A stretch of DNA of 32,116 bases from a virus. Taxonomy: Duplodnaviria > Caudoviricetes. A program made the position numbers and the translations under genes. The stretch lies in the IMG/VR virus record IMGVR_UViG_3300032234_000723, positions 1 to 32,116 of that record; one strand, written 5' to 3'. Shown here in pieces: positions 3,001-22,889 of the stretch (position 1 is the first letter of the stretch; every line of letters starts with the position of its first letter). The notes under the pieces were generated by a model that was not told where the DNA came from, ran no database searches, and saw only the letters and a program-made list of their open reading frames with translations.

Positions 3001-4803
3001 GTGGCTGTAGGTTCTACAACTTTATATAGTAACACTCATGGAAATGATAATGTTGCTATAGGAAATACAGCAGGTCGTTATTATGGTACTGGTACTTCAG
3101 CAGTTACAGACACTAGCGGGTCTATCTTTATAGGTAGACTAGCTCGTGCCAATGCGTCTGGTGAAGTAAATCAGATTGTAATTGGTATGAATGCTTTGGG
3201 TCTAGGCTCAAATACAGTTGTATTAGGTAATGATAACGTTACAACAACAGCACTTAAAGGAAATGTAGGTATTGGTACAACTACTCCTGGATATAAACTT
3301 AATTTATATTCAACTTCATCTACTCAACCATCTATAATTGGAACTAACACAAACCCAACAGTTGCAATGCGTGTTGGACATGGGTATGATTCTAGTAGCC
3401 CAAATAACATTACAGCAAAAATAGAATTTACTCCATCTGCTTTGGTAGGATATTATGGTGATGATATTACATTTGGTACTACTAATCAAGTAACATCTCC
3501 ATCAAATAATGATGGATCTACTGAAAGAATGCGCATCACCTCTACAGGTAATGTAGGTATTGGAACAACAACACCAGCATATAAACTAGATGTAAATGGT
3601 AGAACATTAGTTAACCAATTAGAATACACAAGAGCTATAGACATTAGTGGAGGAGATTTAAATTCTTACACATTAGCTGGTTTCTACAATGGATCGGGAA
3701 TGACAAACGCTCCAAATGGTGGTTGGTTTTGGGTTACTGTAGAAGTATATAGTGGAGATACTAGTTGGATTCACCAAACAGCAACATCCTTTGGTGCTAG
3801 TAACACAGCAAATGAAGTTTATACTCGAGTAAAATCAGGAGGGTCATGGGGTGCCTGGAAACAATTAGGAGATGCTGCTAGTATTTCAGGCACAACAAAC
3901 TATATACCTAAATTTACAAGTGGTACAGCTATTGGAAATTCCGTAATGTATGATGATGGTACCAATATTGGTATTGGAACTACAAGCCCATCAACAAAAT
4001 TAGAAGTAAATGGTGTTGGTAAATTTGGTGCATATGCTTATATAGGAACAAACATTGCACAAGGATATTACCAAGATGTTAATAATGGTGCCTTTAGAGC
4101 ATTATCGGGTGCTTCTGACCCGGGATATTATTTCCAAAGCTATAATGGTGCTGCAACTACAATGTTTGTTGGATTAGCTGGTACATATGCTGGTAAGGTA
4201 GGTATCGGAACAACAATCCCAGGATACCCATTACATTTATCAGTTGCTGGTGGTGAAACCGGTATTCGAACAACTGTAGGATCATCTGATATATATCTTG
4301 CTCATGGTGGTTGGAGTATGGGTGGAGGTAAACTTGGTATTGGGGATGCTTCTAATCCTACAATAACAGTTGATGCTCCTAATGATAGAATAGGTATTAA
4401 TACTACTAGTCCTGGATATACATTAGATGTAAACGGTAATACAAATGTAAACGGAATACTAACAGCAACTGTTAAATCCTTCATCATTGATCACCCAACC
4501 AAAGAAGGTAAAAAATTACAATATGGTGTACTCGAGGGACCTGAACATTCGGTTTATGTTCGTGGTAAATTAACAAATACTAACGTAATACAATTACCGG
4601 ATTACTGGCACGCACTAGTTCATGAAGATACAATTACAGTGAATTTAACAGCTATTGGAAAACCTCAAGAAATCTGGGTAGAAGAGATAACTGATACATA
4701 TATTACGGTAGGTTCATTATCCGAAAACATAAATTGTTTTTATGCTGTATTTGCTGAACGTAAAGATATAGATAAATTAGTAACAGAATTTGATAAAGAA
4801 TAA
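1..4803 (+). CDS. Giant multidomain tail/capsid fibre protein with collagen-like repeats (5'-truncated; frame is open from base 1)
   Basis: Frame +1 has no stop from 1 to TAA 4801-4803, so the listed 202 start is internal. Order: C1q/BclA-like jelly-roll tail (IWLRKNG...YYQIIW), SASYA spacer, two Gly-X-Y tracts, repeated (N/S/K)(V/I)GIGTTxP motifs, 14-aa NxA(V/I)G beta-roll repeats, knob-like domain (DLNSYTLAGFY...QTA...YTRVKSGGSWGAWK), C-terminal KSFIIDHP...LEGPE...VRG domain typical of phage fibre ends. Confidence 0.85.
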   Translation, partial: SAQVEKTDSGTDEIVIWLRKNGIDLTDSATKLTLSGNGTKVVAAWNWFALSAANDYYQIIWVSADTGMRLYAEPINSTPGIPSVILTVNRVDQFLSNTGSFSGSFTGTLTGTASYATQAFSSSYAVSASYAQFAATPTVQGVQGIQGIIGTQGAIGTQGTIGAQGTVGTQGTTGTQGTIGTQGTTGTQGTTGDTGSQGTTGTQGITGVQGTIGSQGTTGTQGTTGTQGVIGTQGIQGIQGEVGTQGTTGAQGTIGTTGAQGTTGAQGTAGVQGTTGTQGVTGAQGTTGTQGAVGTTGAQGTTGNTGSQGTTGAQGTTGTQGTTGTQGTTGTQGTTGTQGTVGTQGTTGTQGTDGSFGGATFDYTYDTTTSAGDPGTGKVRLNNATENAATAMYIDSTTDQSANIDSFLNTINAVSSAIKGYVRIANRLDATQFLLFQISALTDNTGWWTITITNQAYSAPSPFTNLEDIIVSFVTTGDKGAQGTTGTQGTVGTQGTVGTQGTTGGTGTQGTTGTQGTTGDTGSQGTTGAQGTVGTTGTQGTTGTQGTVGVQGTVGTQGTTGAQGTVGTQGAAGTQGTIGTQGVTGTQGTVGAQGTVGTTGTQGTTGAQGTTGAQGTTGTQGTTGTQGTTGTQGIQGVQGATGVSPGGTTNYVSKFTGATTIGNSQIFDNGTNIGIGTTSPTSTLQIQSNNLSAPALAVSKSFSGGGDGTAVMHAFGFDSGIANTGIQVGVKGTGGFSAADAYPFRVFNQGTAVFNVLSNGNSYFSGSVGIGTTTPSYKLSVAAASTSDGIQISYGGASRFIFNGDGVAYWGGSSADAGQLTWDTGKAIVMGMSGQALSLGSNGTWDRMYINTSGNVGIGTITPAYKLSVVGKIALNDGGNSVFIGDNAGQLDDATANINVGIGTNALQNNTTGNQNVAIGNNSLPANNQNNNTAVGSNTLQFNTIGFSNTGIGSYALNANIEGTFNTAVGTAALITNNSGSSNTGVGSSAMRLAISASNNVAVGSTTLYSNTHGNDNVAIGNTAGRYYGTGTSAVTDTSGSIFIGRLARANASGEVNQIVIGMNALGLGSNTVVLGNDNVTTTALKGNVGIGTTTPGYKLNLYSTSSTQPSIIGTNTNPTVAMRVGHGYDSSSPNNITAKIEFTPSALVGYYGDDITFGTTNQVTSPSNNDGSTERMRITSTGNVGIGTTTPAYKLDVNGRTLVNQLEYTRAIDISGGDLNSYTLAGFYNGSGMTNAPNGGWFWVTVEVYSGDTSWIHQTATSFGASNTANEVYTRVKSGGSWGAWKQLGDAASISGTTNYIPKFTSGTAIGNSVMYDDGTNIGIGTTSPSTKLEVNGVGKFGAYAYIGTNIAQGYYQDVNNGAFRALSGASDPGYYFQSYNGAATTMFVGLAGTYAGKVGIGTTIPGYPLHLSVAGGETGIRTTVGSSDIYLAHGGWSMGGGKLGIGDASNPTITVDAPNDRIGINTTSPGYTLDVNGNTNVNGILTATVKSFIIDHPTKEGKKLQYGVLEGPEHSVYVRGKLTNTNVIQLPDYWHALVHEDTITVNLTAIGKPQEIWVEEITDTYITVGSLSENINCFYAVFAERKDIDKLVTEFDKE
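421..1068 (+). repeat. Collagen-like tract 1: about 72 uninterrupted Gly-X-Y triplets (GTQ/GTT/GAQ)
   Basis: Gly codon every 9 nt from 421 to 1060; 18-nt near-tandem DNA units such as GGAACAACAGGAACACAA. Confidence 0.95.
1429..1932 (+). repeat. Collagen-like tract 2: about 56 uninterrupted Gly-X-Y triplets
   Basis: Gly codon every 9 nt from 1429 (GDK) to 1924 (GVS). Confidence 0.95.
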
Positions 4804-4806
4804 GTT

Positions 4807-5457
4807 ATGGCATTAAATTATGGACCAAATATAACCACAAATGGATTAATTCTCTCTTTAGATGCAGCTGATAAAAATTCATATCCGGGATCTGGTACTA
4901 CATGGTATAATTCAATAGCATTACCAAATGCATCATTACCAAGTACATCTACGTATGCCAATAATACTATGAATTATACCTATAATTATTCAAATATAGG
5001 AGCTTTATTATCTGCCGGGGCGTATGACAACACAATGGAAATTTGGTTTTATGTTCCTAGTGGTGGTTCATATGCTGGATGTTGTGATACTATTTTCGGT
5101 ACTTATTGGTTTAGAACATTTTTAATAGGCCAAACATTTTTTACAATGATAGGTTTTTATACTGGTTCCGGATATATCTATCAACATCCCGCATATAATA
5201 TATCATACGATACTTGGCATTGTGCTGTAGGTATGAGAAGAAATGGTAGATATATTATTTGGATAGACGGAGTAGAACTCTATAATACAGACTATGGAGG
5301 ATCATATTCTTTATATGATGCTGTAGGAGATTGGTATATTAGTTCTTCAACTCACCCCAATGTAAAAGTAACATCTGCTAGAGTATATAATCGAGGATTA
5401 ACTGATCAAGAATTACTTCAAAATTATAATATACAAAAATCAAGATTCGGACTATGA
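4807..5457 (+). CDS. LamG/concanavalin A-like lectin domain protein, paralog 1 (216 aa)
   Basis: GPNITTNGLILSLDAADKNSYPGSGTTW start, TMEIWF, WHCAVG, IWIDG, RVYNRGLT..ELLQNYN..KSRFGL end: typical phage LamG-fold architecture. Confidence 0.8.
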   Translation: MALNYGPNITTNGLILSLDAADKNSYPGSGTTWYNSIALPNASLPSTSTYANNTMNYTYNYSNIGALLSAGAYDNTMEIWFYVPSGGSYAGCCDTIFGTYWFRTFLIGQTFFTMIGFYTGSGYIYQHPAYNISYDTWHCAVGMRRNGRYIIWIDGVELYNTDYGGSYSLYDAVGDWYISSSTHPNVKVTSARVYNRGLTDQELLQNYNIQKSRFGL

Positions 5458-5621
5458 CATTTATAATTGTAGAAATACCCGAAGAGGAAATTGGGAATTG
5501 CATTTTAAATGCTTTTAAATATATGGTAGAAAATGAAGAAAATCATACTAGGTGGTTTGGTTCCAACACATACCAAGACTGTGTAGACTATATAGCTAAT
5601 TATACTAATAACCCCATTTAA
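5454..5621 (+). CDS. Small hypothetical protein, 55 aa (absent from the supplied ORF track)
   Basis: ATG 5454 overlaps the upstream TGA (ATGA). Reads MTFIIVEIPEEEIGNCILNAFKYMVENEENHTRWFGSNTYQDCVDYIANYTNNPI to TAA 5619-5621, with 1 nt separating it from the next ATG; fills the gap exactly. Confidence 0.7.
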   Translation: MTFIIVEIPEEEIGNCILNAFKYMVENEENHTRWFGSNTYQDCVDYIANYTNNPI

Positions 5622-5622
5622 T

Positions 5623-6984
5623 ATGCCCACATCAGTAGGACCAAATATCGTTAAAAAAATAAACTTAAAAACTGTTTTAGACGCGGCGGATGTTAATTCT
5701 ATGCTACCTATGTCTACATTTTTAAATATGTCTCCATGGACTATAGGAAATGGGGGAGTAGGTAATTATTCTGGAAATGGTAATTACAATGAAAATGAAC
5801 GTTTATTAGGAACTGATCCATGGGGTAATTCTGCAATAGTTTGGCAATCAAATCCAAGTGGAGATGGAAATCCCGATGGTGGATGGAACAATGGATATTA
5901 TGGTATTGATAGAACAAAACTATATCGCTGGTCAGTCTGGGTAAAACGAACCTCTTCAACCTCCGGAGGATATAGCTACCTTGGACTTTACGGTTCAGGT
6001 GGTACTTGGGGAGTTGAACGTTTAGATAATGGTGCTAATGAAGGTAATCCATATTGGGAATGTGCTGGTACTGGAGTTTATACCCAAAACCAATGGTATT
6101 TAATGGTAGGCCATTGTTACCCTGCAGGTACAACAGGTATCCCAGGAAATAAACATCCTGATACAGGAAGATATACTATAAATGGTAGAGACGGAGATTT
6201 AAACTATTGTAATATTGGTGGGGATGTACGTTGGTTAAGTGATTCAACTGTAGGTTTACATAGAACATATCATTATTATTGTGGAGATAATACAACCCAC
6301 CTACAATGGTATGACCCTAGATTTGAAATATGCGATGGTACTGAACCAACTATTTCTGAATTACTTTCTAATCCCGCAACACTCTTTAGAGACATCTCAG
6401 GTAATAGAATTAAAGGTACATTACAAAACGGCGTTCAACAAGATAAATCTAATTTGGGAGCTATGATTTTTGATGGTACTGATGATTATATTAATATAGG
6501 AGCAGGTACTGGGTTAAATCAATTTTCTGGAGATTTCACTATTTCTCTATGGGCTATGAGAACTGCAGGTGGTAGTTATGGAAATTTAATAGGAGACTAT
6601 TATACCAACTCCACAGCTACAACAGGTGAATGGCAATTAATGATGGGCCCTAACTCAGAATTTAATTTTTATAAAGTAGGACCAGGATATGTTATCAACA
6701 ATGTAGCATCTGGTTTTTCAAATTATACATGGATAAATGTAGTAGTAACTCGTATTGGAACAGCAGTTACAATGTATGCTAATGGAAATATAATAGCAAC
6801 AGGTACAGATTCTACTAGTTACGGTACAGTAACAGGAAATTTAAATATAGGAATAGATGGAAATAATTCATCTGAACCATTTCCAGGCAAAATTGCTAAT
6901 ATTCAAATTCTTCAAACTGCTTTAACTACTGCTGAAGTAAAACAAAACTATAATCAATATAAATCACGTTTCAATTTAAGTTAA
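5623..6984 (+). CDS. LamG-like lectin domain protein, paralog 2, with a large inserted domain (453 aa)
   Basis: GPNIV...LDAAD N-terminus, aromatic-rich insert, then RDISGN..GTLQNG, FDGTDDY, FTISLW, WINVVVTR, EVKQNYNQYKSRFNLS. Confidence 0.8.
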   Translation: MPTSVGPNIVKKINLKTVLDAADVNSMLPMSTFLNMSPWTIGNGGVGNYSGNGNYNENERLLGTDPWGNSAIVWQSNPSGDGNPDGGWNNGYYGIDRTKLYRWSVWVKRTSSTSGGYSYLGLYGSGGTWGVERLDNGANEGNPYWECAGTGVYTQNQWYLMVGHCYPAGTTGIPGNKHPDTGRYTINGRDGDLNYCNIGGDVRWLSDSTVGLHRTYHYYCGDNTTHLQWYDPRFEICDGTEPTISELLSNPATLFRDISGNRIKGTLQNGVQQDKSNLGAMIFDGTDDYINIGAGTGLNQFSGDFTISLWAMRTAGGSYGNLIGDYYTNSTATTGEWQLMMGPNSEFNFYKVGPGYVINNVASGFSNYTWINVVVTRIGTAVTMYANGNIIATGTDSTSYGTVTGNLNIGIDGNNSSEPFPGKIANIQILQTALTTAEVKQNYNQYKSRFNLS

Positions 6985-6987
6985 GAT

Positions 6988-8166
6988 ATGGCAGTAGCGA
7001 ATGGATTTGGAAAAGTAGTAACATCGGGTTCGGTGTTTATGTACGATACAGGAGATGCTATAAACTCGTATATTGGAGAACCCACCACAAACATATTTAA
7101 TAGTTATGGAACATCAGGCGCTGGTGCTGCTTCAAACAATGCTGTTAATTTTGATGTTCAAGGAACTACGGGGTTTATTCGTTTAGGATATGGTCAAACT
7201 TTTGGAGGATATACAATTAAACCAACTGATGTAGTTTATAAATATGATTTAGGTGGTTATGGGTGTCATTATCATGGAAATGATGTTTCAATCCCCTCAG
7301 GTAAATATGTTACATTTACTTTTGACTTTTATGTTAGTCCGGGTGCAGCAAGTTATCCTATAACAAATTTTCTTGCTAATATAGAAACAGGTACAGGTAC
7401 AGGAATGTCTGTTGGAGCTCCAAATAATCTAACAGGAGTATGGCAAACAGTTAGTGTAACCACAGGACCTTCATCATCACCGGGAAATATAAGAATGCTA
7501 TTATATCCTGGAGCATGTGGTGGTGCCTTAGCGGGTGATGGATATGTTTTATATAAAAATCCACAAGTTGAACTTTTATCACATAAAACCCCATTTACAC
7601 AAACTTCACGTAGTGTAACTGGTTCTCTATTACCAATAGTAGGTAATTCAACTGTTGATTTGTCTAATGTATCTTTTGATTCAAATGCTCAAATAGTATT
7701 TGATGGAACTGATGATCAGATTAATTTATCTACAAACTTCGGTACAGTATCTCAATATACTATTGAATATGTAGCATATACTGATACCCCAGCTAGAATG
7801 CCTATTGCTTCAAGAACAACAACAGCATTTTATAAGTTTGGAGCTAATAGTTGGCGATATACTCATGGGGGTGTAGGTGGTGAATTTTATCACACCACAG
7901 GTGTAGCTACAGGATGGGCTCATTGGGTTATAACTTATAATGGATCTACTATAGAGGTATTCCAAAATGGAAATAGCTTAGGATCTACATCCAGTTCAGG
8001 AACTGCAGATTTTAGTGATGGTTTTAAAATAGGATATTGGGCCGCCGGTGGAAGTTATGCTTGGAATGGATATATTCCAATATCAAAAATATATAACCGA
8101 GCTTTATCAGCATCGGAAGTCAAACAAAATTACAATAAATACAAATCACGTTTTAATTTATCATAA
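6988..8166 (+). CDS. LamG-like lectin domain protein, paralog 3, with an inserted carbohydrate-binding-like domain (392 aa)
   Basis: GKVVTSGSVFMYDTGD..NSYIGEPTTN start; FDGTDD, WAHWVITYNG, KIYNRALSASEVKQNYNKYKSRFNLS end. Confidence 0.8.
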   Translation: MAVANGFGKVVTSGSVFMYDTGDAINSYIGEPTTNIFNSYGTSGAGAASNNAVNFDVQGTTGFIRLGYGQTFGGYTIKPTDVVYKYDLGGYGCHYHGNDVSIPSGKYVTFTFDFYVSPGAASYPITNFLANIETGTGTGMSVGAPNNLTGVWQTVSVTTGPSSSPGNIRMLLYPGACGGALAGDGYVLYKNPQVELLSHKTPFTQTSRSVTGSLLPIVGNSTVDLSNVSFDSNAQIVFDGTDDQINLSTNFGTVSQYTIEYVAYTDTPARMPIASRTTTAFYKFGANSWRYTHGGVGGEFYHTTGVATGWAHWVITYNGSTIEVFQNGNSLGSTSSSGTADFSDGFKIGYWAAGGSYAWNGYIPISKIYNRALSASEVKQNYNKYKSRFNLS

Positions 8167-10277: not shown

Positions 10278-12812
10278 ATGAATTCAAACTTTACTAAGCA
10301 GGTTATAAAAAATGGTGGTTCAATTCACCCAATTATTATTCCATCCGATCAAACAAATGGAACGGGATTAATGAATCCATCCATTTACAATGATAATGGT
10401 AAACTTATCATGAACTTACGTCATGTAAATTATACTTTATATCATTGTGAAGGAGAACAACTCCATATCAATAGGTGGGGCCCATTAGCCTACCTCAACC
10501 CAGAAAATGATCTACATTTACGCACAACAAACTATTTTTGTGAAGTAACTGATGATTTAGAAGTTAAATCATTTACAAAAATTGATACGTCTAAACTAGA
10601 TGTACCACCTATTTGGCAATTTGTTGGTTTAGAAGATGGACGTTTAGTTCGTTGGAATGACAAATTATATATTTGTGGTGTTAGACGAGATACTACCTCA
10701 CATGGTGAAGGTAGAATGGAAATGTCTGAACTTGAAGTTAAAAATGGTAAAGTTCGAGAAATTAAACGTAGCCGAATCAAACACCCATACGATCAATCAT
10801 CATATTGTGAAAAAAATTGGATGGTAGTAACCGATATGCCTAATCATATGGTAAAATGGACTAATCCAACCGAGGTTATAGAAGCAGATCCTGAAACACT
10901 TGAATGCTACCAACGAATCCTAAAACCAGGAACTGATGAACATCAGGATATGAGAGGTAGCTCACAGATTATTCCATATAAAGGGAAACGCATTTGTATT
11001 ATCCATGAAGTTGATTTATTTAAAAACAAATTAGGTCAAAAAGATGGAAAATATACCCATCGTTTTGTAATTTGGGATATGGATTGGAATATTGAACATG
11101 TTTCTGAACCATTTAGTTTTATGGACGGTGAAGTTGAATTTTGCTGCGGTTTAACTGAATTCAAAGATGATTTGTTGGTAACGTTCGGTTTCCAAGATAA
11201 TGCCGCTTATATATTAAGAATACCTCAAACATTTTTTGATACTTATATTAAACAAGAAAAACTCCATAAAAAATTCAATTGGGGGGAAATTGCTAATAAT
11301 TCATGGTTCCAAGAAACAGTAAATGAAGAAATCTTCATCCAGGATTTTTATACTGAAAAATTTCCTATTGATAAAGGAGATATAGTATTGGATATTGGAG
11401 CATCAGCTGGTCCATTTACATATTCTATATTACATAAAGAACCCAAACACGTATATTGTTTTGAACCGAAGAAAACATTATTTGATACTATGACCGAAAA
11501 TGTAGGTCATCATCCAAATGTTACTTTACTCAATAAAGGTATCAGCAATGTAGATGGTGAAACTGAATTCAAAGGTCTATATTTTTCTGATGTGACAGAA
11601 ACCTGGGGAAGAACAGCAACCGCTGATGCAATTACATTTGATACTTTTCTAAAAGAATATAATATAGAACAGATTGATTTTATGAAAATCGACTGTGAGG
11701 GAGGCGAATATGATATTTTCACCCCAGAACGATTACCATGGATCAAACAAAATGTTAAAAAAATTGTAGGTGAATGGCATCTATCTAAACCTGAATTAAA
11801 AGAACAATTCCGTAAATTCCGAGATACTTATTTAAAAGAATTTAGTACATTTGATGTATATTCTTGGGATGGAGTTGACATTAAATGGGATTTATGGAAT
11901 GATCATTTTATAGACTATTATAGTGAAATTACACTTTATATAGACAATCGTAAACCAATTAAAAAAGAACACTGGCGTTTAACAGAATGGCCTACGTTAG
12001 AGTTTACAACATCAATTCCCCCAAAAGGGTGTGTAATTGATTGTGCTTTTTGTCCTCAAAAGACATTGTTGAATGTATATAAGGCAGACAAAACAATGAC
12101 ATTTGAAAACTTTAAAAAAGTAATCGATAAACTACCAAAAGAAGTACGTGTTACATTCTCTGGGTTTACTGAACCATGGTTAAACAAACGTTGCACAGAT
12201 ATGCTTATCTATGCTTCCCAACAAGGACATCCTATATCAGCATTTACAACAGGTGTAGGTATGACTTTAGAAGATGTTGAACGTATTAAAAACATTAAAT
12301 TTGTTAACGGACCAAATGGTGGTTTCTGCCTACATATCCCAGACCAAGAACGTATTGCAAAACACCCTATCACTCCTAGATTAATAGAGGTGTTTGAGCG
12401 TTTCAAAGAACTTGAAAACCATATAGAAGGTTTTTATGTTATGTGTATGGGAGAAGTTCATGAAAGTGTTAAACATTTATGGCCTGAAGTACATGTTCCT
12501 ACATTTTGGTCTAGAGCAGGCAACCTACTAGGTGAAGCCATCATTAAACCAGAACTAGAAAAATATAAAGACAGATTCCAGCATATGGATCATGGTGATA
12601 AACCTATGACTTGTGGTTGTGTTGAGAATTTATATCATAATGTAGTATTACCTAATGGAGATGTTTCATTATGTTGTATGGATTATGGTTTAAAACACAT
12701 ACTAGGAAATATATTTGAACAAGATTATGAAGATGTAATCCCTAAACCATTACAATGTTTTTCCTTATGTCAAGGATGTGAAAATGCTGTATCACCTGAT
12801 AATAAAAAATAA
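10278..12812 (+). CDS. Three-domain enzyme (844 aa): beta-propeller glycosidase-like (GH130/DUF377-like) + FkbM-family methyltransferase + radical SAM with SPASM/twitch domain
   Basis: NPSI, GLEDGRL, CEKNW, RGSSQ, VEFCCG (propeller); VLDIGASAGPFT, CFEP, IDFMKIDCEGGE (FkbM); CVIDCAFC (CxxxCxxC at 12030-12053), FSGFTEP, VLPNGDVSLCCMDY...LGNI...CxxCxxC (radical SAM/SPASM). Confidence 0.8.
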   Translation: MNSNFTKQVIKNGGSIHPIIIPSDQTNGTGLMNPSIYNDNGKLIMNLRHVNYTLYHCEGEQLHINRWGPLAYLNPENDLHLRTTNYFCEVTDDLEVKSFTKIDTSKLDVPPIWQFVGLEDGRLVRWNDKLYICGVRRDTTSHGEGRMEMSELEVKNGKVREIKRSRIKHPYDQSSYCEKNWMVVTDMPNHMVKWTNPTEVIEADPETLECYQRILKPGTDEHQDMRGSSQIIPYKGKRICIIHEVDLFKNKLGQKDGKYTHRFVIWDMDWNIEHVSEPFSFMDGEVEFCCGLTEFKDDLLVTFGFQDNAAYILRIPQTFFDTYIKQEKLHKKFNWGEIANNSWFQETVNEEIFIQDFYTEKFPIDKGDIVLDIGASAGPFTYSILHKEPKHVYCFEPKKTLFDTMTENVGHHPNVTLLNKGISNVDGETEFKGLYFSDVTETWGRTATADAITFDTFLKEYNIEQIDFMKIDCEGGEYDIFTPERLPWIKQNVKKIVGEWHLSKPELKEQFRKFRDTYLKEFSTFDVYSWDGVDIKWDLWNDHFIDYYSEITLYIDNRKPIKKEHWRLTEWPTLEFTTSIPPKGCVIDCAFCPQKTLLNVYKADKTMTFENFKKVIDKLPKEVRVTFSGFTEPWLNKRCTDMLIYASQQGHPISAFTTGVGMTLEDVERIKNIKFVNGPNGGFCLHIPDQERIAKHPITPRLIEVFERFKELENHIEGFYVMCMGEVHESVKHLWPEVHVPTFWSRAGNLLGEAIIKPELEKYKDRFQHMDHGDKPMTCGCVENLYHNVVLPNGDVSLCCMDYGLKHILGNIFEQDYEDVIPKPLQCFSLCQGCENAVSPDNKK

Positions 12813-12813
12813 T

Positions 12814-13368
12814 ATGACACTACAATATTGGTTACAACTTTATATAAAAAACCCTAAAGATCAAAATATTAACTTTAATTTGGGTTGTCAATATGAACAA
12901 CAAGGACAAACAGCATCTGCTGCTGGCTTTTATTTACGAAGTGTAGAATTTGGACATGATGTAAATCTTCAATATGAAGCATTATGTAGAATGGCTTTAT
13001 GTTTTGAAAAGCAAGGCAATCGTGTATTTACTCTTAAAGGTATCTTATTACGAGCAATTTCAATTTTACCAAAACGTCCTGAAGCATATTTTCTATTAGC
13101 TAGAATTTATGAGCGAAGTCAAGAATGGCAAGAGGGATATACAACATCAGTTATAGCCTATGAATTCACTACAGATGAATATACTACACAAACCAATCTA
13201 GAATACCCTACTAAACTAGGATTTTTATTTGAAAAAGCAGTATGTGCTTGGTGGATTGGATTATATGATGAATCCCTCTCGTTATTTAGAGAATTGAAAA
13301 AATATGACATGCCTGAAATATACAAAAATGCAATCCAAGCTAATTTAGACAATTTAGATAAACCTTAA
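12814..13368 (+). CDS. TPR-repeat protein (probable start ATG 12814, in frame with the listed 12778 ORF)
   Basis: NFNLGCQYEQQGQTASAAGFYLR, AISILPKRPEAYFLLARIYE helical TPR pattern; ATG follows the upstream TAA after 1 nt. Confidence 0.75.
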   Translation: MTLQYWLQLYIKNPKDQNINFNLGCQYEQQGQTASAAGFYLRSVEFGHDVNLQYEALCRMALCFEKQGNRVFTLKGILLRAISILPKRPEAYFLLARIYERSQEWQEGYTTSVIAYEFTTDEYTTQTNLEYPTKLGFLFEKAVCAWWIGLYDESLSLFRELKKYDMPEIYKNAIQANLDNLDKP

Positions 13369-15340: not shown

Positions 15341-17086
15341 ATGGCAGAAACAATTGTATCACCTGGTGTATTAGCAATAGAGAACAACCAATCATATGTA
15401 ACTCAACAACCTGCACAGGCGGGCGCCGCTATTATAGGACCAACAGTTAAAGGTAAAGTAGGAATCCCTACTATAGTTACTTCATATTCCGATTATTTAA
15501 ATAAGTTTGGTGCTACTTTCCTTAGTGGAAGTAACACCTACACTTATTTTACTTCTATTACAGCTTATAACTACTTTAATAATGGAGGAAGTTCATTATT
15601 AGTAACTAGAGTAGTAAGTGGTACTTTTTCACCTGCTACTTCTTCATTTGTATCTGCTTCTTCACACGCTGCTGGTTCTCCTTATAATACAGATGTATTC
15701 GTATTAGAAACTATTTCTAAAGGAGAAATAATGAATAGTACAGGCCCAACAGGTAGTTACAATACATTAATAAGTGGTTCATCTGATAACTTTAGATGGC
15801 AAATTACAAATTCTGATCAAACAAATGGTACTTTTTATATATTAGTTCGCCAGGGTAATGATTCATCAATTAATCCATCTGTATTAGAAAATTGGGGTCC
15901 ATTATCATTGGATCCATATTCATCAAATTATATTGAAAAAGTAATTGGTAATCAAGTTGAAACTATTGCTGTAGATAACGGTGAATATTATATTCAATTA
16001 TCTGGAAGTTATCCAAATAATTCATCATATATTCGTGTTAAAACAGTTAATCAAGCAACACCAAACTATTTTGATAATGTAGGAATTGCAAAACCACAAT
16101 ATACTGGATCAATTCCAATTAATATGAGTGGTTCATTTGGATCAGCAACAGGAAAAAATATCCCAACAGGCATTGCAGGAGCTTATTATGACACTATTAC
16201 ATCAGATACTAATATTCAAGGTTTAACTGCCAATCATTATACAGAATCTATTTATTTACTAGCTAATAAAGATGCCTTTAAATATAACCTACTAACAGCC
16301 CCAGGATTAATGTCCGATATAGGACCAACATCTGCAGGTGCTATTAGTTTAATGAATTCTATTGCTCAAAATAGAGGCGATATGATGGTAGTATTTGATT
16401 CATCAAAATATAATTCCCAAATTGGCTCAGTATTAACTAATACAGCAGGATATGATACATCATATGCCGCTACTTATTGGCCTTGGGTAAAAACAATTGA
16501 CCCAAGCACAGCTAATCAAGTCTGGACACCAGCTTCAACATTGATTCCTGGAGTATACGCATTTAATGATAATGCAGCTGCTCCTTGGTTTGCACCAGCA
16601 GGTATTAATCGAGGTGTTTTAACTACTGCTATCCAAGCAGAACGTGTTTTAACTCAAGGAAATAGAGATACATTATATCAATCAAATATTAATCCTATTG
16701 CTACATATCCAACAAATGGTATAGTAGTATTTGGACAAAAAACATTAGCTAAGAAAAAAAGTGCTTTAGATCGTGTCAATGTTCGTCGTTTATTAATTGA
16801 ATTAAAATCATATATTTCTCAAATAGCTGATACATTTGTATTTGAACAAAATGATACAGTTACAAGAAATAATTTCTTATCAATTGTTAATCCATATTTA
16901 GCTTCTGTTCAACAACAACAAGGTTTAACTGCGTTTAAAGTAGTAATGGATGAAACAAATAATCCACCAAATGTGGTAGATAACAATCAATTAGTAGGAC
17001 AAATTTTCTTACAACCCACAAAAACAGCAGAATTTATTTTACTAGACTTTAATATATTACCTACAGGTGCAACATTTCCTGCTTAA
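15341..17086 (+). CDS. Contractile tail sheath protein, paralog 1 (581 aa)
   Basis: SPGV N-terminus, AAIIGPTVKG, YAATYWPWV, PWFAPAGINRG, NINPI, VVFGQKTL, DRVNVRRL, FEQND, QPTKTAEFI: T4 gp18/P2 FI-type sheath motifs. Confidence 0.95.
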   Translation: MAETIVSPGVLAIENNQSYVTQQPAQAGAAIIGPTVKGKVGIPTIVTSYSDYLNKFGATFLSGSNTYTYFTSITAYNYFNNGGSSLLVTRVVSGTFSPATSSFVSASSHAAGSPYNTDVFVLETISKGEIMNSTGPTGSYNTLISGSSDNFRWQITNSDQTNGTFYILVRQGNDSSINPSVLENWGPLSLDPYSSNYIEKVIGNQVETIAVDNGEYYIQLSGSYPNNSSYIRVKTVNQATPNYFDNVGIAKPQYTGSIPINMSGSFGSATGKNIPTGIAGAYYDTITSDTNIQGLTANHYTESIYLLANKDAFKYNLLTAPGLMSDIGPTSAGAISLMNSIAQNRGDMMVVFDSSKYNSQIGSVLTNTAGYDTSYAATYWPWVKTIDPSTANQVWTPASTLIPGVYAFNDNAAAPWFAPAGINRGVLTTAIQAERVLTQGNRDTLYQSNINPIATYPTNGIVVFGQKTLAKKKSALDRVNVRRLLIELKSYISQIADTFVFEQNDTVTRNNFLSIVNPYLASVQQQQGLTAFKVVMDETNNPPNVVDNNQLVGQIFLQPTKTAEFILLDFNILPTGATFPA

Positions 17087-17109
17087 TAATATATTTTAAA
17101 GAGAATATT

Positions 17110-17125
17110 AATATTTATAATAAAA
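17110..17125 (+). promoter_or_regulatory. Putative late promoter motif AATATTTATAATAAAA
   Basis: Exact copy upstream of sheath 2. Confidence 0.75.
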
Positions 17126-17132
17126 ATATAAA

Positions 17133-18854
17133 ATGGCAAATTTTACAACTTCTCCTGGAGTAGCAATTAGTGAAATAGACAACACATACTTGACAGGATT
17201 ACCTGTTCAGGCTGGTGCTGCTATTATAGGTCCAACCGTTAAGGGTCCTGTAGAACAACCAACACTTGTAACAACTTATTCAGACTTCGTAACGATATTT
17301 GGAGATACTTTCATTAGTGGTGGTAACTCATACTCATACCTTACTTCAATAGCTGCTTATAATTACTTCAATTATGGAGGAACTTCATTATTGGTTGCTC
17401 GTGTAGTAACTGAATCTGCTAACTGGACACCAGCACAAAGTACTACAGTATCTTCTTATTTAAATGCAACCTCAGCTTCATTTGTTTTAGAAACTATTTC
17501 TGAAGGGGTTACTATGAATAATTCAGGCTCAAATATGCTTGGAGCTTCAGGATCATTAGTTTCAGGTTCAGCAAATAATATTCGTTGGGAAGTTACTAAT
17601 TCAAATACTGGATCAGGTACATTTAACTTATTAGTTAGACGTGGTAATGATGTAAACACCAATAAAGTTGTATTAGAAGCATGGAATAACTTAACATTAG
17701 ACCCAAATTCTTCAAGATATATTTCTAGAGTAATTGGTGATCAAAATCTTCAATACAGTTCAGTTAATGAACAAATGGAAATATCTGGAAGTTTCCCAAA
17801 TAACTCAAGATATGTTCGTATTAAATCAGTTAATTTACCTACTCCAAATTATTTTGATTCTAACGGGGTTGCTGTAACAGCATATACCGCTTCAATTCCA
17901 TTAAATGGTAGTGGTTCTGCAGGAGGTGCATTTTTCAACGCCGGAGGAGCTGTAAATAATACTATCACATTATATGATAATATTTCAACAAATACACAAG
18001 GATTAATAGGTAGTAGCTATGACAACATGATTACATTATTTGGTAATCCTGAAGCATATCAATTTAATATTTTATTCACTCCTGGTTTATTAAACGATAC
18101 TCATACTACTCAAGTTACAAACATTATCTCAAACACAATTGCAAGAGGTGATAACATGTATGTAATGGATTTAGGAGTATATGGTACTTCACTCCCAGAA
18201 GCAGTAACACAAGCACAAACACGTGATACTTCATACGCAGCAACATATTGGCCTTGGGTTCGCATTATCGACCCAGCAACAGGAAAACATGTTTGGGTAC
18301 CAGCTTCAACAGTAATCCCAGGTGTATATGCATTCAATGATAAAGTATCCGCTCCATGGTTTGCACCAGCAGGTATTAATCGTGGTGGATTAAGTACAGT
18401 ATTACAAGCTGAATTAAAATTATCTCAAGCTAATAAAGACGCATTATATTCAAATAATATCAACCCAATTGCAACGTTACCTAAACAAGGTGTTGTAGTA
18501 TTTGGACAAAAAACACTACAAAAATCACAATCTGCTCTTGATCGTGTAAATGTACGTCGTTTAATGATTGAATTGAAAGCATATATTCGTCAAATTGCTG
18601 ATACAGTAGTATTTGAACAAAATACAATTTCAACACGTAATTCATTTGTAGCTAGAGTTAATCCATATTTAGAAGCAATCCAACAAAAACAAGGATTATA
18701 TGCTTATAGAGTAGTAATGGATGATTCAAATAACGGACCAGCAGTAATTGACCAAAATCAATTAGTAGGACAAATTTATATCCAACCAACTCGTACAGCA
18801 GAATTTATATCTCTAGACTTTATCTTACAACCAACAGGAGCTCAATTTCCTTGA
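17133..18854 (+). CDS. Contractile tail sheath protein, paralog 2 (573 aa)
   Basis: Same full set of sheath motifs (SPGV, GPTVKGP, YWPWV, WFAPAGINRG, FGQKTLQ, DRVNVRRL, QPTRTAEFI). Confidence 0.95.
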   Translation: MANFTTSPGVAISEIDNTYLTGLPVQAGAAIIGPTVKGPVEQPTLVTTYSDFVTIFGDTFISGGNSYSYLTSIAAYNYFNYGGTSLLVARVVTESANWTPAQSTTVSSYLNATSASFVLETISEGVTMNNSGSNMLGASGSLVSGSANNIRWEVTNSNTGSGTFNLLVRRGNDVNTNKVVLEAWNNLTLDPNSSRYISRVIGDQNLQYSSVNEQMEISGSFPNNSRYVRIKSVNLPTPNYFDSNGVAVTAYTASIPLNGSGSAGGAFFNAGGAVNNTITLYDNISTNTQGLIGSSYDNMITLFGNPEAYQFNILFTPGLLNDTHTTQVTNIISNTIARGDNMYVMDLGVYGTSLPEAVTQAQTRDTSYAATYWPWVRIIDPATGKHVWVPASTVIPGVYAFNDKVSAPWFAPAGINRGGLSTVLQAELKLSQANKDALYSNNINPIATLPKQGVVVFGQKTLQKSQSALDRVNVRRLMIELKAYIRQIADTVVFEQNTISTRNSFVARVNPYLEAIQQKQGLYAYRVVMDDSNNGPAVIDQNQLVGQIYIQPTRTAEFISLDFILQPTGAQFP

Positions 18855-18904: not shown

Positions 18905-19393
18905 ATGCCAATATTAAACCCAAACGAAATATTTTTCACGGCGTTTGAACCGAAACAAAGTAACCGTTTTATTCTTTATATGGATGGTGTTCCATCATAT
19001 TTGGTAAAAGGAGTAGGTGCTGTATCATTAACACAAACTGCAGTTGCTCTAAACCATATTAACGTTCAACGTTATGTAAAAGGAAAAACAGTTTGGAATA
19101 CAATCCAATTCACAATGTATGAGTCAATCACACCAAGTGGAGCTCAAGCAGTAATGGAATGGGTACGTTTAGGACACGAATCAGTAACTGGACGTGATGG
19201 TTACTCGGATTTCTATAAGAAAGATATTACTTTCAACGTAGTTGGTCCTGTAGGTGATATCGTTTCTGAATGGGTAATCAAAGGAGCTGTAATTACAGAA
19301 GTTAATTTTGGTGATTATAACTGGGATGATGATGGACAAGCAGTAAATATCCAAGTAACTGTACAACCAGACTATTGTATCTTGAACTACTAA
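18905..19393 (+). CDS. Tail tube protein (T4 gp19-like, 162 aa)
   Basis: Position after sheath, size, and motifs FEPKQSNRF, GKTVW..I..T.Y, VMEW, YKKDI, SEWVIKGA, FGDYNW. Confidence 0.9.
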   Translation: MPILNPNEIFFTAFEPKQSNRFILYMDGVPSYLVKGVGAVSLTQTAVALNHINVQRYVKGKTVWNTIQFTMYESITPSGAQAVMEWVRLGHESVTGRDGYSDFYKKDITFNVVGPVGDIVSEWVIKGAVITEVNFGDYNWDDDGQAVNIQVTVQPDYCILNY

Positions 19394-19415
19394 GAACAAA
19401 ACAACAAAGTATACG

Positions 19416-19453
19416 AAAGCTCCAAAGAAATTTGGGGCTTTTACTTTCCTTTT
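19416..19453 (+). terminator. Intrinsic terminator after the tube gene
   Basis: 11-bp stem AAAGCTCCAAA / TTTGGGGCTTT (one G-U pair) with a GAAA tetraloop, followed by T-rich TACTTTCCTTTT. Confidence 0.8.
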
Positions 19454-19462
19454 ATATATTGT
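19431..19462 (+). promoter_or_regulatory. Bacteroidota-type promoter TTTG-N20-TATATTGT overlapping the terminator 3' arm
   Basis: Same spacing as the elements at 10242 and 31559; 4 nt separate it from ATG 19467. Confidence 0.55.
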
Positions 19463-19466
19463 GCTT

Positions 19467-21443
19467 ATGAAAAAATTATTTATCTTCCTTTTATTAGCAT
19501 CTACTGGATATGCTCAACACTGTCCCGAATTAGGTCCTGACCAAATTTTACCTTGTGGTGTAGGAACAGCTACTTTAACCGCAGATTTAAGTCAATGTGG
19601 TCCTGGTGGTCCGGGTCCAAAACAAACAACAGACTATGCTGTAACTAGCATTCCTTATGTTGCTCAAGTCAATAATGGAACTAATATCTTTATGACAGAT
19701 GATTCTCAACAAGGACCATTTAATATAGGATTTACATTTTGTTTCTTTGGACAAACATATACTCAATTTTATATAGGTTCAAATGGATGGATTTCATTCT
19801 CTGGAGGACAACCAACTACTTTTACTTCTCAAACTATACCAACGGGTAATGCTCTAGTCCCTAAAAATTGTATCATGGGACCATGGCAAGATTGGCATCC
19901 TGGTATTGGTGGGCAAATTAAATATCAAACTGTTGGTACTGCTCCATGTAGAAAACTCATTGTAAGTTGGATTGGAGTACCAATGTATAGTTGTACCTTT
20001 AATCAAGGTACATTCCATATAGTAATTCATGAATCAACCAATTATATTGAAAACTACATCCAAGATAAACCAGACTGCCAAACATGGCAAGGTGGTACTG
20101 CAGTAGAAGGTATTCATAACGCAGCTGGCACTATTGGAATCCCAGTACCTGGAAGAAATTCAACGGCTTGGACAGCAAATAATGATGCTTGGAGATGGAC
20201 TCCAAATGGACCCACAGTTAACCCAGTTTTAACTTGGTATCGAATAGGAAATCCAAACCCAATTGGAACTGGTCTTACACTCAATGTTACTCCTCCTGCT
20301 GGTGGTGCTCAATATACTTGTAAATTTGTTTATCCAACTTGTAATGCCGGGTGGAATGCTTGTAATGGTATTGCTGGATTAGGACCTGACACAGTATTTG
20401 TAATGCCTGGTCCTGCATATCCTGTAGTAAGTCCTATTATTGCTTCTGATACAATATGTTTTCCATCAAATAATGAAATTTATTCTATAGTTGAGCAACC
20501 TGGGGTTACTTACCTTTGGAGCGCAGTAGGAAACATCACTTCAGGTCAAGGAACAGATAGTATTACAGTAGATTGGAGTGCTATATCTCCTGGATTTATA
20601 CCTGGAGCAGTAATGGTTACCCCTCAAGCAAATGGGTGTGTTGGTATGCCTGTATCCCTCGATTTAACATATTTAAATATTGAACCAACAATTGATCCTG
20701 TAGGTCCGTTTTGTGAATATGATGAATTTGTTACATTACAAGCAACTCCTATTGGTGGTGTATTTTCGGGCCCTGGAATTATTGGAAATGATTTCACTCC
20801 AGGTAATGCTGTTGGAGTTGATACTATTTTATATGAATATACTTTAAGTGGATGTTTATTTGATACAACAACAGTTATTACTGTTTATCCAACCCCGACC
20901 CTAGATTCTATAACACCACACAATACTTATTTTGAATTATGTGAATTAGATTCGGCTAGTATTACTTGGAATGCTATTGGTAATCCTGCAGGATATAATG
21001 AATGGACTTGGAGTAATCAACAATATATCCAAAATTCATTAACACAAACACTCGTTTGGGACTCAGTAGGAACTCATCAGGTATCTGTAGTACATTGGGC
21101 GAATGGTTGTGTATCTAGTCCACAAACAGCATTAGTATCAGTTATTCAATGTCCTGAATTGTTATTTTACATAGCTAATTCTTTTACCCCGGATGGGGAT
21201 GAGCATAATAATGTTTTAAGATTTGTATTTACAAGTGGGTTTGACCCATATGACTTTAAAGCATTGATTTATAATAGATGGGGTGAAGTTATATTTGAAA
21301 CAAATGATGTCTTATCTTATTGGGATGGAACATATAATAACGCATTATGTCAACCGGGATCATATGCCTATGATATTCAATTTGGTGATAAAACCAATGG
21401 ACGTAAATATTCAGTTACAGGAAATGTTAATCTTATTAGATAA
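19467..21443 (+). CDS. Secreted protein with Sec signal peptide, NIDO-like and PKD/Ig-like domains and a T9SS type B (gliding motility-associated, CHU_C/TIGR04131-like) C-terminal sorting domain
   Basis: MKKLFIFLLLASTGYA|Q signal peptide (ATG 19467 preferred to GTG 19461); DD...FNIGFTFCFFGQTYTQFYIGSNGWISF; YLWS..GNITSGQGTDSITVDW; C-terminus YIANSFTPDGDEHNN...IYNRWGEVIFET...WDGT...GSYAY...GNVNLIR; about 19 Cys. Confidence 0.88.
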   Translation: MKKLFIFLLLASTGYAQHCPELGPDQILPCGVGTATLTADLSQCGPGGPGPKQTTDYAVTSIPYVAQVNNGTNIFMTDDSQQGPFNIGFTFCFFGQTYTQFYIGSNGWISFSGGQPTTFTSQTIPTGNALVPKNCIMGPWQDWHPGIGGQIKYQTVGTAPCRKLIVSWIGVPMYSCTFNQGTFHIVIHESTNYIENYIQDKPDCQTWQGGTAVEGIHNAAGTIGIPVPGRNSTAWTANNDAWRWTPNGPTVNPVLTWYRIGNPNPIGTGLTLNVTPPAGGAQYTCKFVYPTCNAGWNACNGIAGLGPDTVFVMPGPAYPVVSPIIASDTICFPSNNEIYSIVEQPGVTYLWSAVGNITSGQGTDSITVDWSAISPGFIPGAVMVTPQANGCVGMPVSLDLTYLNIEPTIDPVGPFCEYDEFVTLQATPIGGVFSGPGIIGNDFTPGNAVGVDTILYEYTLSGCLFDTTTVITVYPTPTLDSITPHNTYFELCELDSASITWNAIGNPAGYNEWTWSNQQYIQNSLTQTLVWDSVGTHQVSVVHWANGCVSSPQTALVSVIQCPELLFYIANSFTPDGDEHNNVLRFVFTSGFDPYDFKALIYNRWGEVIFETNDVLSYWDGTYNNALCQPGSYAYDIQFGDKTNGRKYSVTGNVNLIR

Positions 21444-21446
21444 TAT

Positions 21447-21459
21447 AATATTTATAATA
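21447..21459 (+). promoter_or_regulatory. Putative late promoter motif AATATTTATAATA
   Basis: In the 18-nt gap right after the T9SS cargo gene, before ATG 21462. Confidence 0.7.
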
Positions 21460-21461
21460 GT

Positions 21462-21833
21462 ATGAAACTAAACAATTTACGTACTTTAGTAAGAGAAGAA
21501 TTAAGCAAAAAGCTTAATGAAGAATACCAAGACAAATATAAAATGGTTGGTATGATTATTACTAACATTAAATTAAGACCCCAAAAAGAAATATTCTCAG
21601 ATATTCGTTCACTCCCTGGTATTACAGTTGCCTCAGCAAAAGAACCACTTGAATATAGTGAACAAAACACAGAAAAATTCCAAACTATTTTAACCATTAA
21701 AGTTGATGGACATCCTTGGATTACAAAAGGTGGTTTTTCACGTGAAAAAATGGAAGAAATACGCAAAGAAATATTAAAGATTAAAGGAGTATTATCATAT
21801 AATGTAAATCCTGATAATATTACTTCTCTTTAA
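21462..21833 (+). CDS. Hypothetical protein (123 aa), possibly a virion internal protein
   Basis: Own late motif; N-terminal LRTLVREELSKKLNEE helix followed by a small alpha/beta domain. Confidence 0.6.
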   Translation: MKLNNLRTLVREELSKKLNEEYQDKYKMVGMIITNIKLRPQKEIFSDIRSLPGITVASAKEPLEYSEQNTEKFQTILTIKVDGHPWITKGGFSREKMEEIRKEILKIKGVLSYNVNPDNITSL

Positions 21834-21874: not shown

Positions 21875-22603
21875 ATGAGCGAATTTAAATTACCTACTGA
21901 AACCATTGAATTACCCTCAAAAGGTTTGCTTTATCCCGAAGATTCTGAATTAGCAAAAGGTACTCTTGAAATGAAATATATGACCGCTAGAGAAGAGGAC
22001 ATATTAACAAACCAATCATATATCAAAAACGGTACAGTACTAGACAAATTAATGAAATCATTAATTGTATCAAAAATCAATTATGATGATCTATTAATTG
22101 GTGATAAAAACGCAATCATGATCGCGGCTCGTATTTTAGGATATGGTGCTGAATATGTTTTTGATTATGCTGGTGAAGAACAAATGGTTGATTTATCGGT
22201 TCTTGAAAATAAAGAAATTAAAAAAGAATTATTTACAAGTCGTACAAATGAATTTTCATTTACATTACCTAAATCAAAAAATGATATTACATTTAAACTT
22301 TTAACCCACAAAGATGAACAAGATATCACTCGTGAACTAGAAGGCTTAAAGAAAATTAATAAAGACTCATCCCCTGAATTATCTACTAGATTGAAATACA
22401 TGATCACCTCAGTGGAAGGAAAACGAGATAAAAAAGATATCAGGGAGTTTGTTGACAATTACCTCTTAGCACAAGATTCACGAGCATTAAGAGAATATGT
22501 TCGCGAGATTCAACCCGATGTTGATCTAACTTTTTTTCCCAACGGAAGTGAGGGTAGAGTCTCTCTCCCAATTGGGCTTAAGTTTTTTTGGCCTGACCTA
22601 TGA
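21875..22603 (+). CDS. Tail/baseplate hub assembly chaperone (T4 gp26-like, 242 aa)
   Basis: TIELPSKG, MKYMTAREEDIL, LLIGDKNAIMIAARILGYG, FTLPKSK..ITFKLLT, ends LKFFWPDL; located between tube and tape measure. Confidence 0.75.
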   Translation: MSEFKLPTETIELPSKGLLYPEDSELAKGTLEMKYMTAREEDILTNQSYIKNGTVLDKLMKSLIVSKINYDDLLIGDKNAIMIAARILGYGAEYVFDYAGEEQMVDLSVLENKEIKKELFTSRTNEFSFTLPKSKNDITFKLLTHKDEQDITRELEGLKKINKDSSPELSTRLKYMITSVEGKRDKKDIREFVDNYLLAQDSRALREYVREIQPDVDLTFFPNGSEGRVSLPIGLKFFWPDL

Positions 22604-22889
22604 TGTTGCTCCTATAGCAAGAGCAAATCTATTTAAACAAATTCATGAAATAGTTTTCCACGGTAAAGGTGGATATGATTGGCATACGATTTACGATATG
22701 CCAATCTGGCTTCGTAAATATACTTTTAATGAAATTAAAAAATACTACGAAGAAGAAAAAGATGCTGCCGATGGGAAACAAACTTCAGGTGGTGGGAAAC
22801 AAACCGTAATTAATTCAGATGGTACTATAAAAACACCTGAATTACTTCAAAAGGCAGCAAATACTAAAAAACCTATTAAGTATAGCTAA
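22530..22889 (+). CDS. Second chaperone ORF (T4 gp51-like / lambda T-like), probably expressed as a +1 frameshift extension of the upstream gene
   Basis: +1 frame open from 22530 (after TAA 22527) to TAA 22889, overlapping the upstream ORF by 74 nt; no ATG near its start; IHEIVFHGKGGYDWHTIYDMPIWLR motif. Confidence 0.7.
   Translation, partial: LFFPTEVRVESLSQLGLSFFGLTYDVAPIARANLFKQIHEIVFHGKGGYDWHTIYDMPIWLRKYTFNEIKKYYEEEKDAADGKQTSGGGKQTVINSDGTIKTPELLQKAANTKKPIKYS
22580..22592 (+). other. Candidate +1 frameshift site AAG TTT TTT TGG C (alternative T7 run at 22531-22537)
   Basis: Phe-Phe codons on a T7 run can re-pair in the +1 frame (TTT TTT GGC), switching KFFWPDL* to KFFGLTYD... Confidence 0.6.

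Follow-up and report, generated by a model that had tools for sequence, protein, structure and literature searches.

Between the tail genes of a large phage, which likely infects Bacteroidota in fresh water, lies a gene whose sequence supports its product being a type B cargo protein of the host type IX secretion system (T9SS), with export itself predicted. We analyzed this gene in a 32-kb virus record, the whole 32,116-nucleotide stretch of which is called the window here. Because both host T9SS export signals are present in the protein, the phage likely places a binding protein of its own on the infected cell. Our preferred reading, to which we assign a probability of roughly 60%, is that the gene encodes a host-derived, adhesin-like protein that is likely exported through Sec and the T9SS, likely held at the surface by an orphan shuttle of the host, and likely tethers the infected cell.

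In the proposed mechanism, the gene would be transcribed from a host-type promoter resident at its locus, and the protein would cross Sec, fold with disulfides in the periplasm, pass through the host T9SS, and be held by an orphan PorP/SprF shuttle of the host with its head displayed outward on a stalk of three Ig domains. The head would then bind a constant outside ligand, tethering the infected cell to particles, surfaces, or neighboring cells, so that progeny would be freed close to new hosts; adhesion of this kind could benefit a lytic phage. If correct, aquatic phages of a large group reshape the infected cell's surface through the host type IX pathway, using a host shuttle while encoding none. 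Phage takeover would then extend from metabolism to adhesion, and the gene would provide a defined test case for the specificity between shuttles and C-terminal sorting domains (CTDs).

A phage gene encodes a predicted type B T9SS cargo protein

The cargo gene is flanked by the tail tube gene and by a gene for a 123-aa protein, which is followed by hub/chaperone and tape-measure genes (Table 1). Translation from its ATG start gives 658 aa, and an alternative GTG start at 19461 would give 660 aa. A rule-based call assigned a Sec signal peptide to the N-terminus (basic n-region, 8-residue hydropathy of 3.39, end at G-Y-A before Q), and by this rule a signal peptide is also called in 57 of the 60 viral copies that are full length. 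None of the 59 scorable fused copies has a Cys at the cleavage site, so a lipoprotein signal is absent. At the opposite end, residues 569-658 match CHU_C at 44.9 bits (cut-off 27) and TIGR04131 at 37.1 bits (cut-off 35, a margin of just 2 bits), and 16 CTD positions are invariant in 60/60 full-length viral copies, as counted on the alignment without one-to-one mapping to motifs A-E of PMC12618676. These results agree with the sequence-only reading, which had described a Sec signal peptide ending at A before Q, about 19 Cys, PKD/Ig-like segments, and a type B sorting domain: the protein has exactly 19 Cys, PKD_6 matches residues 321-391, and Ig-like domains appear in the models. Neither the Pfam SprB repeat (PF13573) nor any PHROG profile matched the protein.

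Table 1. Positions of the cargo gene, its predicted domains, and neighboring features in the window.
Feature	Position	Strand	Basis
Tail tube gene, upstream neighbor	18905..19393	+	phrog_4542 tail tube, E 2e-22
Intrinsic-terminator-like hairpin, native to tube locus	19415..19442	+	terminator scan
Degenerate Bacteroidota-type promoter motif: TTTG, 20 nt, TATATTGT	19431..19462	+	pattern match
658-aa type B T9SS cargo gene	19467..21443	+	ORF list and profile matches
Sec signal peptide, residues 1-17, predicted cleavage between A and Q	19467..19517	+	rule-based; model helix 2-14
Head, residues 18-318: predicted NIDO-like beta domain inserted in split Ig domain	19518..20420	+	model
Stalk, residues 319-476: PKD-like and Ig-like domains	20421..20894	+	PKD_6; hhalign E 7.8e-48 to residues 326-483
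Residues 477-486, internal counterpart of split-form P-x-L-x-P-I-x-H-N tail	20895..20924	+	profile alignment
Third Ig-like domain, residues 487-562; free-standing anchor gene begins here	20925..21152	+	hhalign
Type B T9SS C-terminal sorting domain, residues 563-658	21153..21440	+	CHU_C, TIGR04131
Late-type motif ATATTTATA, serves next gene	21448..21456	+	one of 8 in window; 'late' inferred from position
123-aa phage-only protein, own late motif; clade marker	21462..21833	+	virus-only clusters

Models predict a head with an inserted beta domain

The model of the full protein is an all-beta multidomain rod (pLDDT 82.7, pTM 0.41). The structures it matched best were Ig repeats from GhpA, an Aureispira adhesin (Z 10.3, rmsd 8.5, 308 aligned), a match that does not discriminate, as unrelated Ig tandems reach Z 9.4. 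A sequence search of solved structures returned nothing significant with either the whole protein or the head profile; two picornavirus structure matches at E 0.008 were judged to be chance.

Modeled alone, the head is confident (pLDDT 92.8, pTM 0.87), with about 80 residues contributed by both ends making up a split Ig domain into which a beta domain is inserted (model residues 1-301). VIA wide matched the split Ig part alone (best Z 7.4, rmsd 2.7, 81 aligned), leaving the inserted domain without an identified fold, which does not imply a new one, and Foldseek gave no match to the head at E≤0.001. For the NIDO-like segment of the sequence-only reading, the model shows a beta domain, and its family assignment is weak: a PF06119 (NIDO) match at E≤0.1 (the best being 6.5e-4) was obtained for 14 of the 87 family members, with the window copy not among them, and the Atlas lead to NIDO for the head amounted to 12% of a cluster. 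No ligand or catalytic role for the head emerged from the profile and structure searches.

The cargo is probably captured by a host shuttle

As the sequence-only reading had noted, the window holds no PorP/SprF-like gene. PorP_SprF was likewise found in 0/13 viral records (four at least 90% complete, plus a 634-kb record), with positive controls giving 21 and 17 matches in two host genomes. A local PorP profile matched at 5/80 host loci and 0 viral loci; host homologs of the cargo are mostly orphans themselves, with PorP adjacent in just 5/80 host loci. In the closest host genome, 47 CHU_C matches exceed the cut-off and several PorP genes are orphans, one of which adjoins gldJ and porU.

In the available portion of PMC12618676, three orphan type B cargo proteins of F. 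johnsoniae share one orphan shuttle, CTD-shuttle pairing is specific, cargo destination depends on the CTD-shuttle pair, and type B cargo are not all sent to the gliding track. The orphan host homologs and this shared shuttle make a missing phage partner ordinary for the cargo family, and by analogy the phage protein may be captured by an orphan PorP/SprF shuttle of the host. For type B cargo as a whole, delivery to the gliding track is not implied.

A binding protein that is secreted and released unanchored, conditioning the surroundings or serving as a decoy after lysis, would fit the failure to find a phage-encoded anchor partner in the 13 viral records and the window, as well as the setting of destination by the CTD-shuttle pair (PMC12618676). 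We regard such release as quite improbable, since type B cargo studied so far remain bound at the surface to a PorP-like protein (PMC9143113, portion available) and a stalk of variable length suits display.

The cargo gene is patchily distributed among phages

Among 8000 scored candidates, 1126 proteins matched as cargo homologs. In IMG/VR, 160 stretches matched the cargo and 80 were kept for analysis: in 48 the tube gene immediately precedes the cargo, a further one is a truncated tail locus, and the remaining 31 show 21 different neighbor contexts, among enzymes, lysins, and unknowns. In the 80 best tube loci plus immuto, the tube gene is followed by the hub gene in 43 loci, by the 123-aa gene in 7, by the cargo in 7, and by another gene in 13; in 11 the contig stops there. 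L197, with a tube 95.6% identical to that of the window, lacks the cargo in its slot (L197 is a fragment, so that this absence concerns the slot only). The closest cultured relative by sheath (50% identical) is Flavobacterium phage immuto (Immutovirus); its complete genome has the order sheath-tube-hub, lacks the cargo gene, and gave no head-profile match. By its sequence distribution, the cargo gene is an accessory gene, mobile between phages.

Absence from the slot of close relatives and from immuto, together with the 31 loci in unrelated contexts, indicates that the gene product is not a required virion part. Conservation in the tail module of relatives and an own late motif without an export signal, as expected of a core tail protein, were both lacking. 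Ig-like domains are common on virions, which would suit an accessory virion protein that decorates the tail or capsid and retains host signals, as would the placement of 49/80 loci within the tail region. We nevertheless hold a virion role to be very improbable: besides the absences and the 21 contexts just described, conservation of the Sec peptide and of 18 Cys indicates a periplasmic location, whereas the sheath, hub, and tape-measure proteins have no Cys.

The cargo gene appears host-derived and is most constrained in its head

Genome matches were mostly MAGs, and 77/80 were titled Bacteroidota; the three titled Akkermansia or Competibacteraceae were not taken as host range, mislabelling being possible. 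In a quick head tree of 115 rows (135 before near-duplicate removal, with sampling biased to query-like sequences), all 46 viral rows fall in one clade (SH-aLRT 98) nested inside host Bacteroidota sequences, and tail-slot copies interleave with copies from other contexts. This clade holds one host row, L083 from Crocinitomicaceae, which is chromosomal and lies beside enolase and ribosomal protein genes. The GC3 of the cargo gene is 0.155, inside the tail-gene range of 0.115-0.233, compared to 0.368 for L083.

Across 60 full-length viral copies, the head has a mean identity of 81% and a median dN/dS of 0.14, compared to 47-55% and 0.34-0.42 for the stalk and 57% and 0.34 for the CTD. At least 54 of the 60 copies retain 18 of the 19 Cys, and stalk length varies by one 79-aa repeat among viral copies. 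The head is up to ~65% identical to a host domain and is not diversifying. These comparisons identify the cargo gene as a long-resident, host-derived gene of large myophages that is evidently under purifying selection.

Repeated losses, seen as at least five changes of cargo state forced by starred branches of the tube tree, and one frameshifted viral copy (L024) would be expected of host DNA carried along neutrally or of a chimeric assembly. This explanation is largely refuted on sequence grounds and retains hardly any likelihood, given 1126 homologs, 160 viral stretches, purifying selection, phage-like GC3, and a single viral clade; against a chimera with host DNA in particular stand the synteny shared by 48/80 viral contigs and the GC3 difference from the host copy.

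Occupation of the secretion or gliding machinery, raised by the sequence-only reading, is disfavored, since conservation of the head far exceeds that of the CTD. The constrained head, the exchangeable heads of the split relatives described below, and the variable stalk length together favor binding of an outside ligand over jamming of machinery. The main rival to adhesion is superinfection exclusion or progeny protection, in which the exported protein would mask the phage receptor or fill host shuttles, blocking receptor adhesins. T9SS and gliding mutants are phage resistant and SprB and RemA are thought to be receptors (PMC9804748, portion available), and orphan cargo that share one shuttle could compete for it (PMC12618676, portion available). 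However, the head and not the CTD is the most constrained part and is a near copy of a host domain, and exchangeable heads on stalks of variable length would be needless for shuttle jamming; we therefore judge exclusion unlikely, though it deserves serious consideration.

Regulatory motifs around the cargo gene are native to the post-tube slot

The sequence-only reading had presented the gene as an autonomous cassette, with a terminator and a host-type promoter upstream and a late motif downstream. All three elements are present, but they belong to the slot and not to a cassette. The hairpin follows the tube gene in 75/77 scorable relatives (3 tube loci were too short to score), and by next gene it was found in 42/42 hub, 7/7 123-aa gene, 12/13 other, 6/7 cargo, and 8/8 contig-end loci; its inner 31 nt fold no better than shuffles (z -1.25). 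The terminator scan found no plus-strand terminator after the cargo gene.

Promoters of Bacteroidota hosts have a TAnnTTTG box as their consensus. Upstream of the cargo gene, TTTG at 19431 is followed after 20 nt by TATATTGT at 19455, with 4/6 positions agreeing with that box; the -33 box sits within the 3' arm of the hairpin, and this motif would yield an almost leaderless cargo mRNA. Scored as TTG, 18-21 nt, TAnRYTD, the host-type pattern occurs before 30/30 distinct tail-slot cargo copies (0.9 expected; strict consensus in three), in 25/43 empty post-tube slots (2.8 expected), and in 9/11 slots occupied by other genes; because the pattern was derived from the same related sequences, the shuffle control is generous and the significance overstated. 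A sigma-70 promoter scan (55 found versus 65 expected) was uninformative for this host. Since the hairpin and the host-type motif also occur at empty slots, the cargo gene did not bring them.

The late motif ATATTTATA lies just 5' of gene starts in 8/8 of its plus-strand matches in the window and precedes both sheath genes, the tube gene, and the tape-measure gene, each with its own copy. The autonomy proposed for the cassette is thus not supported, as these virion genes each own a late motif too. Whereas the late motif precedes 0/30 tail-slot cargo copies, non-tail copies have a late-like motif in 13/22 and the host-type motif in 1/22, a difference by context which suggests that the timing of cargo expression probably varies among lineages. 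The host-type promoter before every tail-slot copy suggests early expression, a point in favor of exclusion. The late-like motif of non-tail copies would suit a virion protein, and with it a lytic cycle offers little time to display the protein at the surface, which counts against adhesion.

The cargo gene appears to be placed between two resident promoter motifs that overlap where the slot is empty. Like a moron, it is an extra, patchy gene between conserved genes, but its promoter and terminator are not its own. In 3/4 RNA libraries (two studies), the 5' portion of the gene is covered by contigs from relatives, which we did not count as expression, DNA carry-over being possible; none of the sequencing runs searched held more than 15% of words.

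A survey of the post-tube region (window 19394-19466, and L196-L275 after the tube gene) identified the slot as an insertion hotspot, with a RecA/KaiC-like ATPase in L224 and L258, a 573-aa DUF723 protein in L235, and ~90-aa membrane/coiled-coil proteins in L207, L214, L245, L256, L257, and L273. No family was found for the 123-aa protein, whose gene is restricted to the cargo-bearing clade yet is also present without the cargo gene. A role for it as a T9SS partner was ruled out by this occurrence without cargo, its lack of a signal peptide, and its virus-only clusters.

Split relatives suggest a modular head-stalk-anchor family

In L203 (3865-5630), the post-tube slot is occupied by three genes, each with a signal peptide. 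A search with the L203 stalk returned 104 stretches, 80 of which were kept (split loci examined were L203 and L281-L371, with hosts L372-L376). A first ORF filter found head, stalk, and anchor in 72/80 loci and the fused form in none, and 25 split loci adjoin the tube or 123-aa gene; an apparent head and anchor form without a stalk (L326, L344) was an artefact of this filter. By a stricter count, 71/80 loci have a closed stand-alone stalk ending in I-x-H-N/D/Y. The stalk start was located in 50/80, and in 47 of these 50 the upstream gene ends in the same tail, compared to a background rate of 6/276 ORFs for the I-x-H-N-type tail; a different gene intervenes in the other three, type A cargo in the one scanned. 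In the split form, the anchor alone carries the CTD, and heads and stalks end in P-x-L-x-P-I-x-H-N. Stalk and anchor alignments show maturation at Gln and no lipobox Cys. The split heads belong to at least seven families on the same stalk and anchor, none of which resembles the window head.

Profile comparison places the split stalk at window residues 326-483 and the split anchor at residues 487-658 (hhalign E 2e-57). This mapping equates the stalk tail with residues 477-486, which in the model follow the final strand of the second Ig domain, and it marks the window protein as an apparent single-chain member of the head-stalk-anchor family. The split form was also found in 4/301 host genomes searched, with two stalk genes in tandem in one of them (L374); in a further host genome (L376), a window-type head is a free tailed gene 5' of a fused stalk-anchor. 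Split viral stalks and host stalks form one clade (SH-aLRT 99).

We infer that the tail may dock by being donated as the first strand to the Ig domain of the next subunit. The head-to-stalk fit is less clean because the stalk's own N-terminus overlaps the tail positions. We discarded an isopeptide link between Lys and Asn for the H-N tail, the mature L281 stalk being without Lys. More tentatively, and with somewhat less than an even chance, the window protein would represent the fused version of an adhesin system, modular and T9SS-anchored, that large phages have in common with their Bacteroidota hosts and in which CTD-less heads and stalks ride one anchor by tail donation and phages swap heads. 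If so, head swaps would reprogram the stickiness of infected cells, repeated stalks could lengthen the fiber, and the split relatives would represent a surface route for CTD-less proteins that is missed by CTD-based secretome predictions.

Comparison with known T9SS cargo and type V pili

Phage-encoded T9SS cargo genes that vary between phages were described for 'Cryophage' (Bellas et al., 2020; PMC7468147), and the available portion of that paper proposes T9SS hijack for competition or superinfection exclusion; the idea of phage T9SS cargo, superinfection exclusion included, is therefore already published for type A. The three 'Cryophage' cargo are type A (endoglucanase, GH39, and PA14), whereas the window cargo, an adhesin-like type B protein, would rely on a PorP/SprF shuttle and occurs across many large phages within a single clade. 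Within the titles and abstract openings of full-text literature matches, we found neither phage type B cargo nor tail-docked T9SS subunits.

Similar in design are the F. johnsoniae orphans Fjoh_1123 and Fjoh_1720 as well as Fjoh_4934, along with their shuttle Fjoh_1677 (PMC12618676, portion available), which share with the window cargo a Sec signal, a type B CTD, the absence of an adjacent PorP/SprF gene, and prediction as adhesins. These orphans are chromosomal and their secretion has been shown, whereas the window cargo is phage-borne and known from sequence. A type B CTD is also common to SprB/SprF and PG1035/PorP (PMC9143113, portion available). Longer relatives of the window protein carry one SprB-like repeat, a likeness to SprB, but the window protein is small, lacks the Pfam SprB repeat, and has no cognate shuttle gene alongside. 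The 816-aa protein of L083, a Crocinitomicaceae MAG, shares the head (64% over residues 1-356), PKD, and CTD, and is also an orphan; most host homologs exceed the window cargo in length (800-2300 aa), and they have more repeats and higher GC3.

Type V pilins are lipoproteins. They are matured by a protease, while the split relatives instead have an Ig/PKD fold, a T9SS CTD anchor, and no lipobox Cys. Like the split relatives, type V pili of Bacteroidia have tip, stalk, and anchor genes, and their C-terminus is required for strand exchange (PMC13655056, portion available), to which the split relatives are likened by sequence complementarity only.

Other phage cargo and genes of the window

Type A cargo was also present in 3/5 viral records tested. 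The 634-kb phage (L082 record, LR745206.1) has four type B (CHU_C) genes and as many as three CTD genes of type A, some of these CTD genes being tiny, at 126-199 aa (L163-L166, L191-L193). In L194 and L195, a ~640-aa type A cargo is followed by shared ~107-aa and ~240-aa genes, the latter encoding a protein that is lipoprotein-like by eye. In L036, L037, L039, and L043, the cargo gene has a gene for a PAS histidine kinase a short way downstream, with a response regulator in 3/4.

Elsewhere in the window, an ORF at 22548-22889, in a different frame from the hub/chaperone gene whose end it overlaps, recurs in relatives; we take it to resemble a frameshift-extended tail chaperone. Two tandem tail sheath genes (15341-18854), each with a late motif, are conserved in the clade, and immuto has one. 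The segment at 202-8166 encodes a 1533-aa collagen-repeat fiber followed by three laminin-G/ConA-like proteins. Among the tail-fiber genes, an 844-aa fusion of FkbM methyltransferase and radical SAM/SPASM domains accompanies a TPR gene (10278-13368), and the FkbM-radical SAM/SPASM arrangement was seen in 4 related loci.
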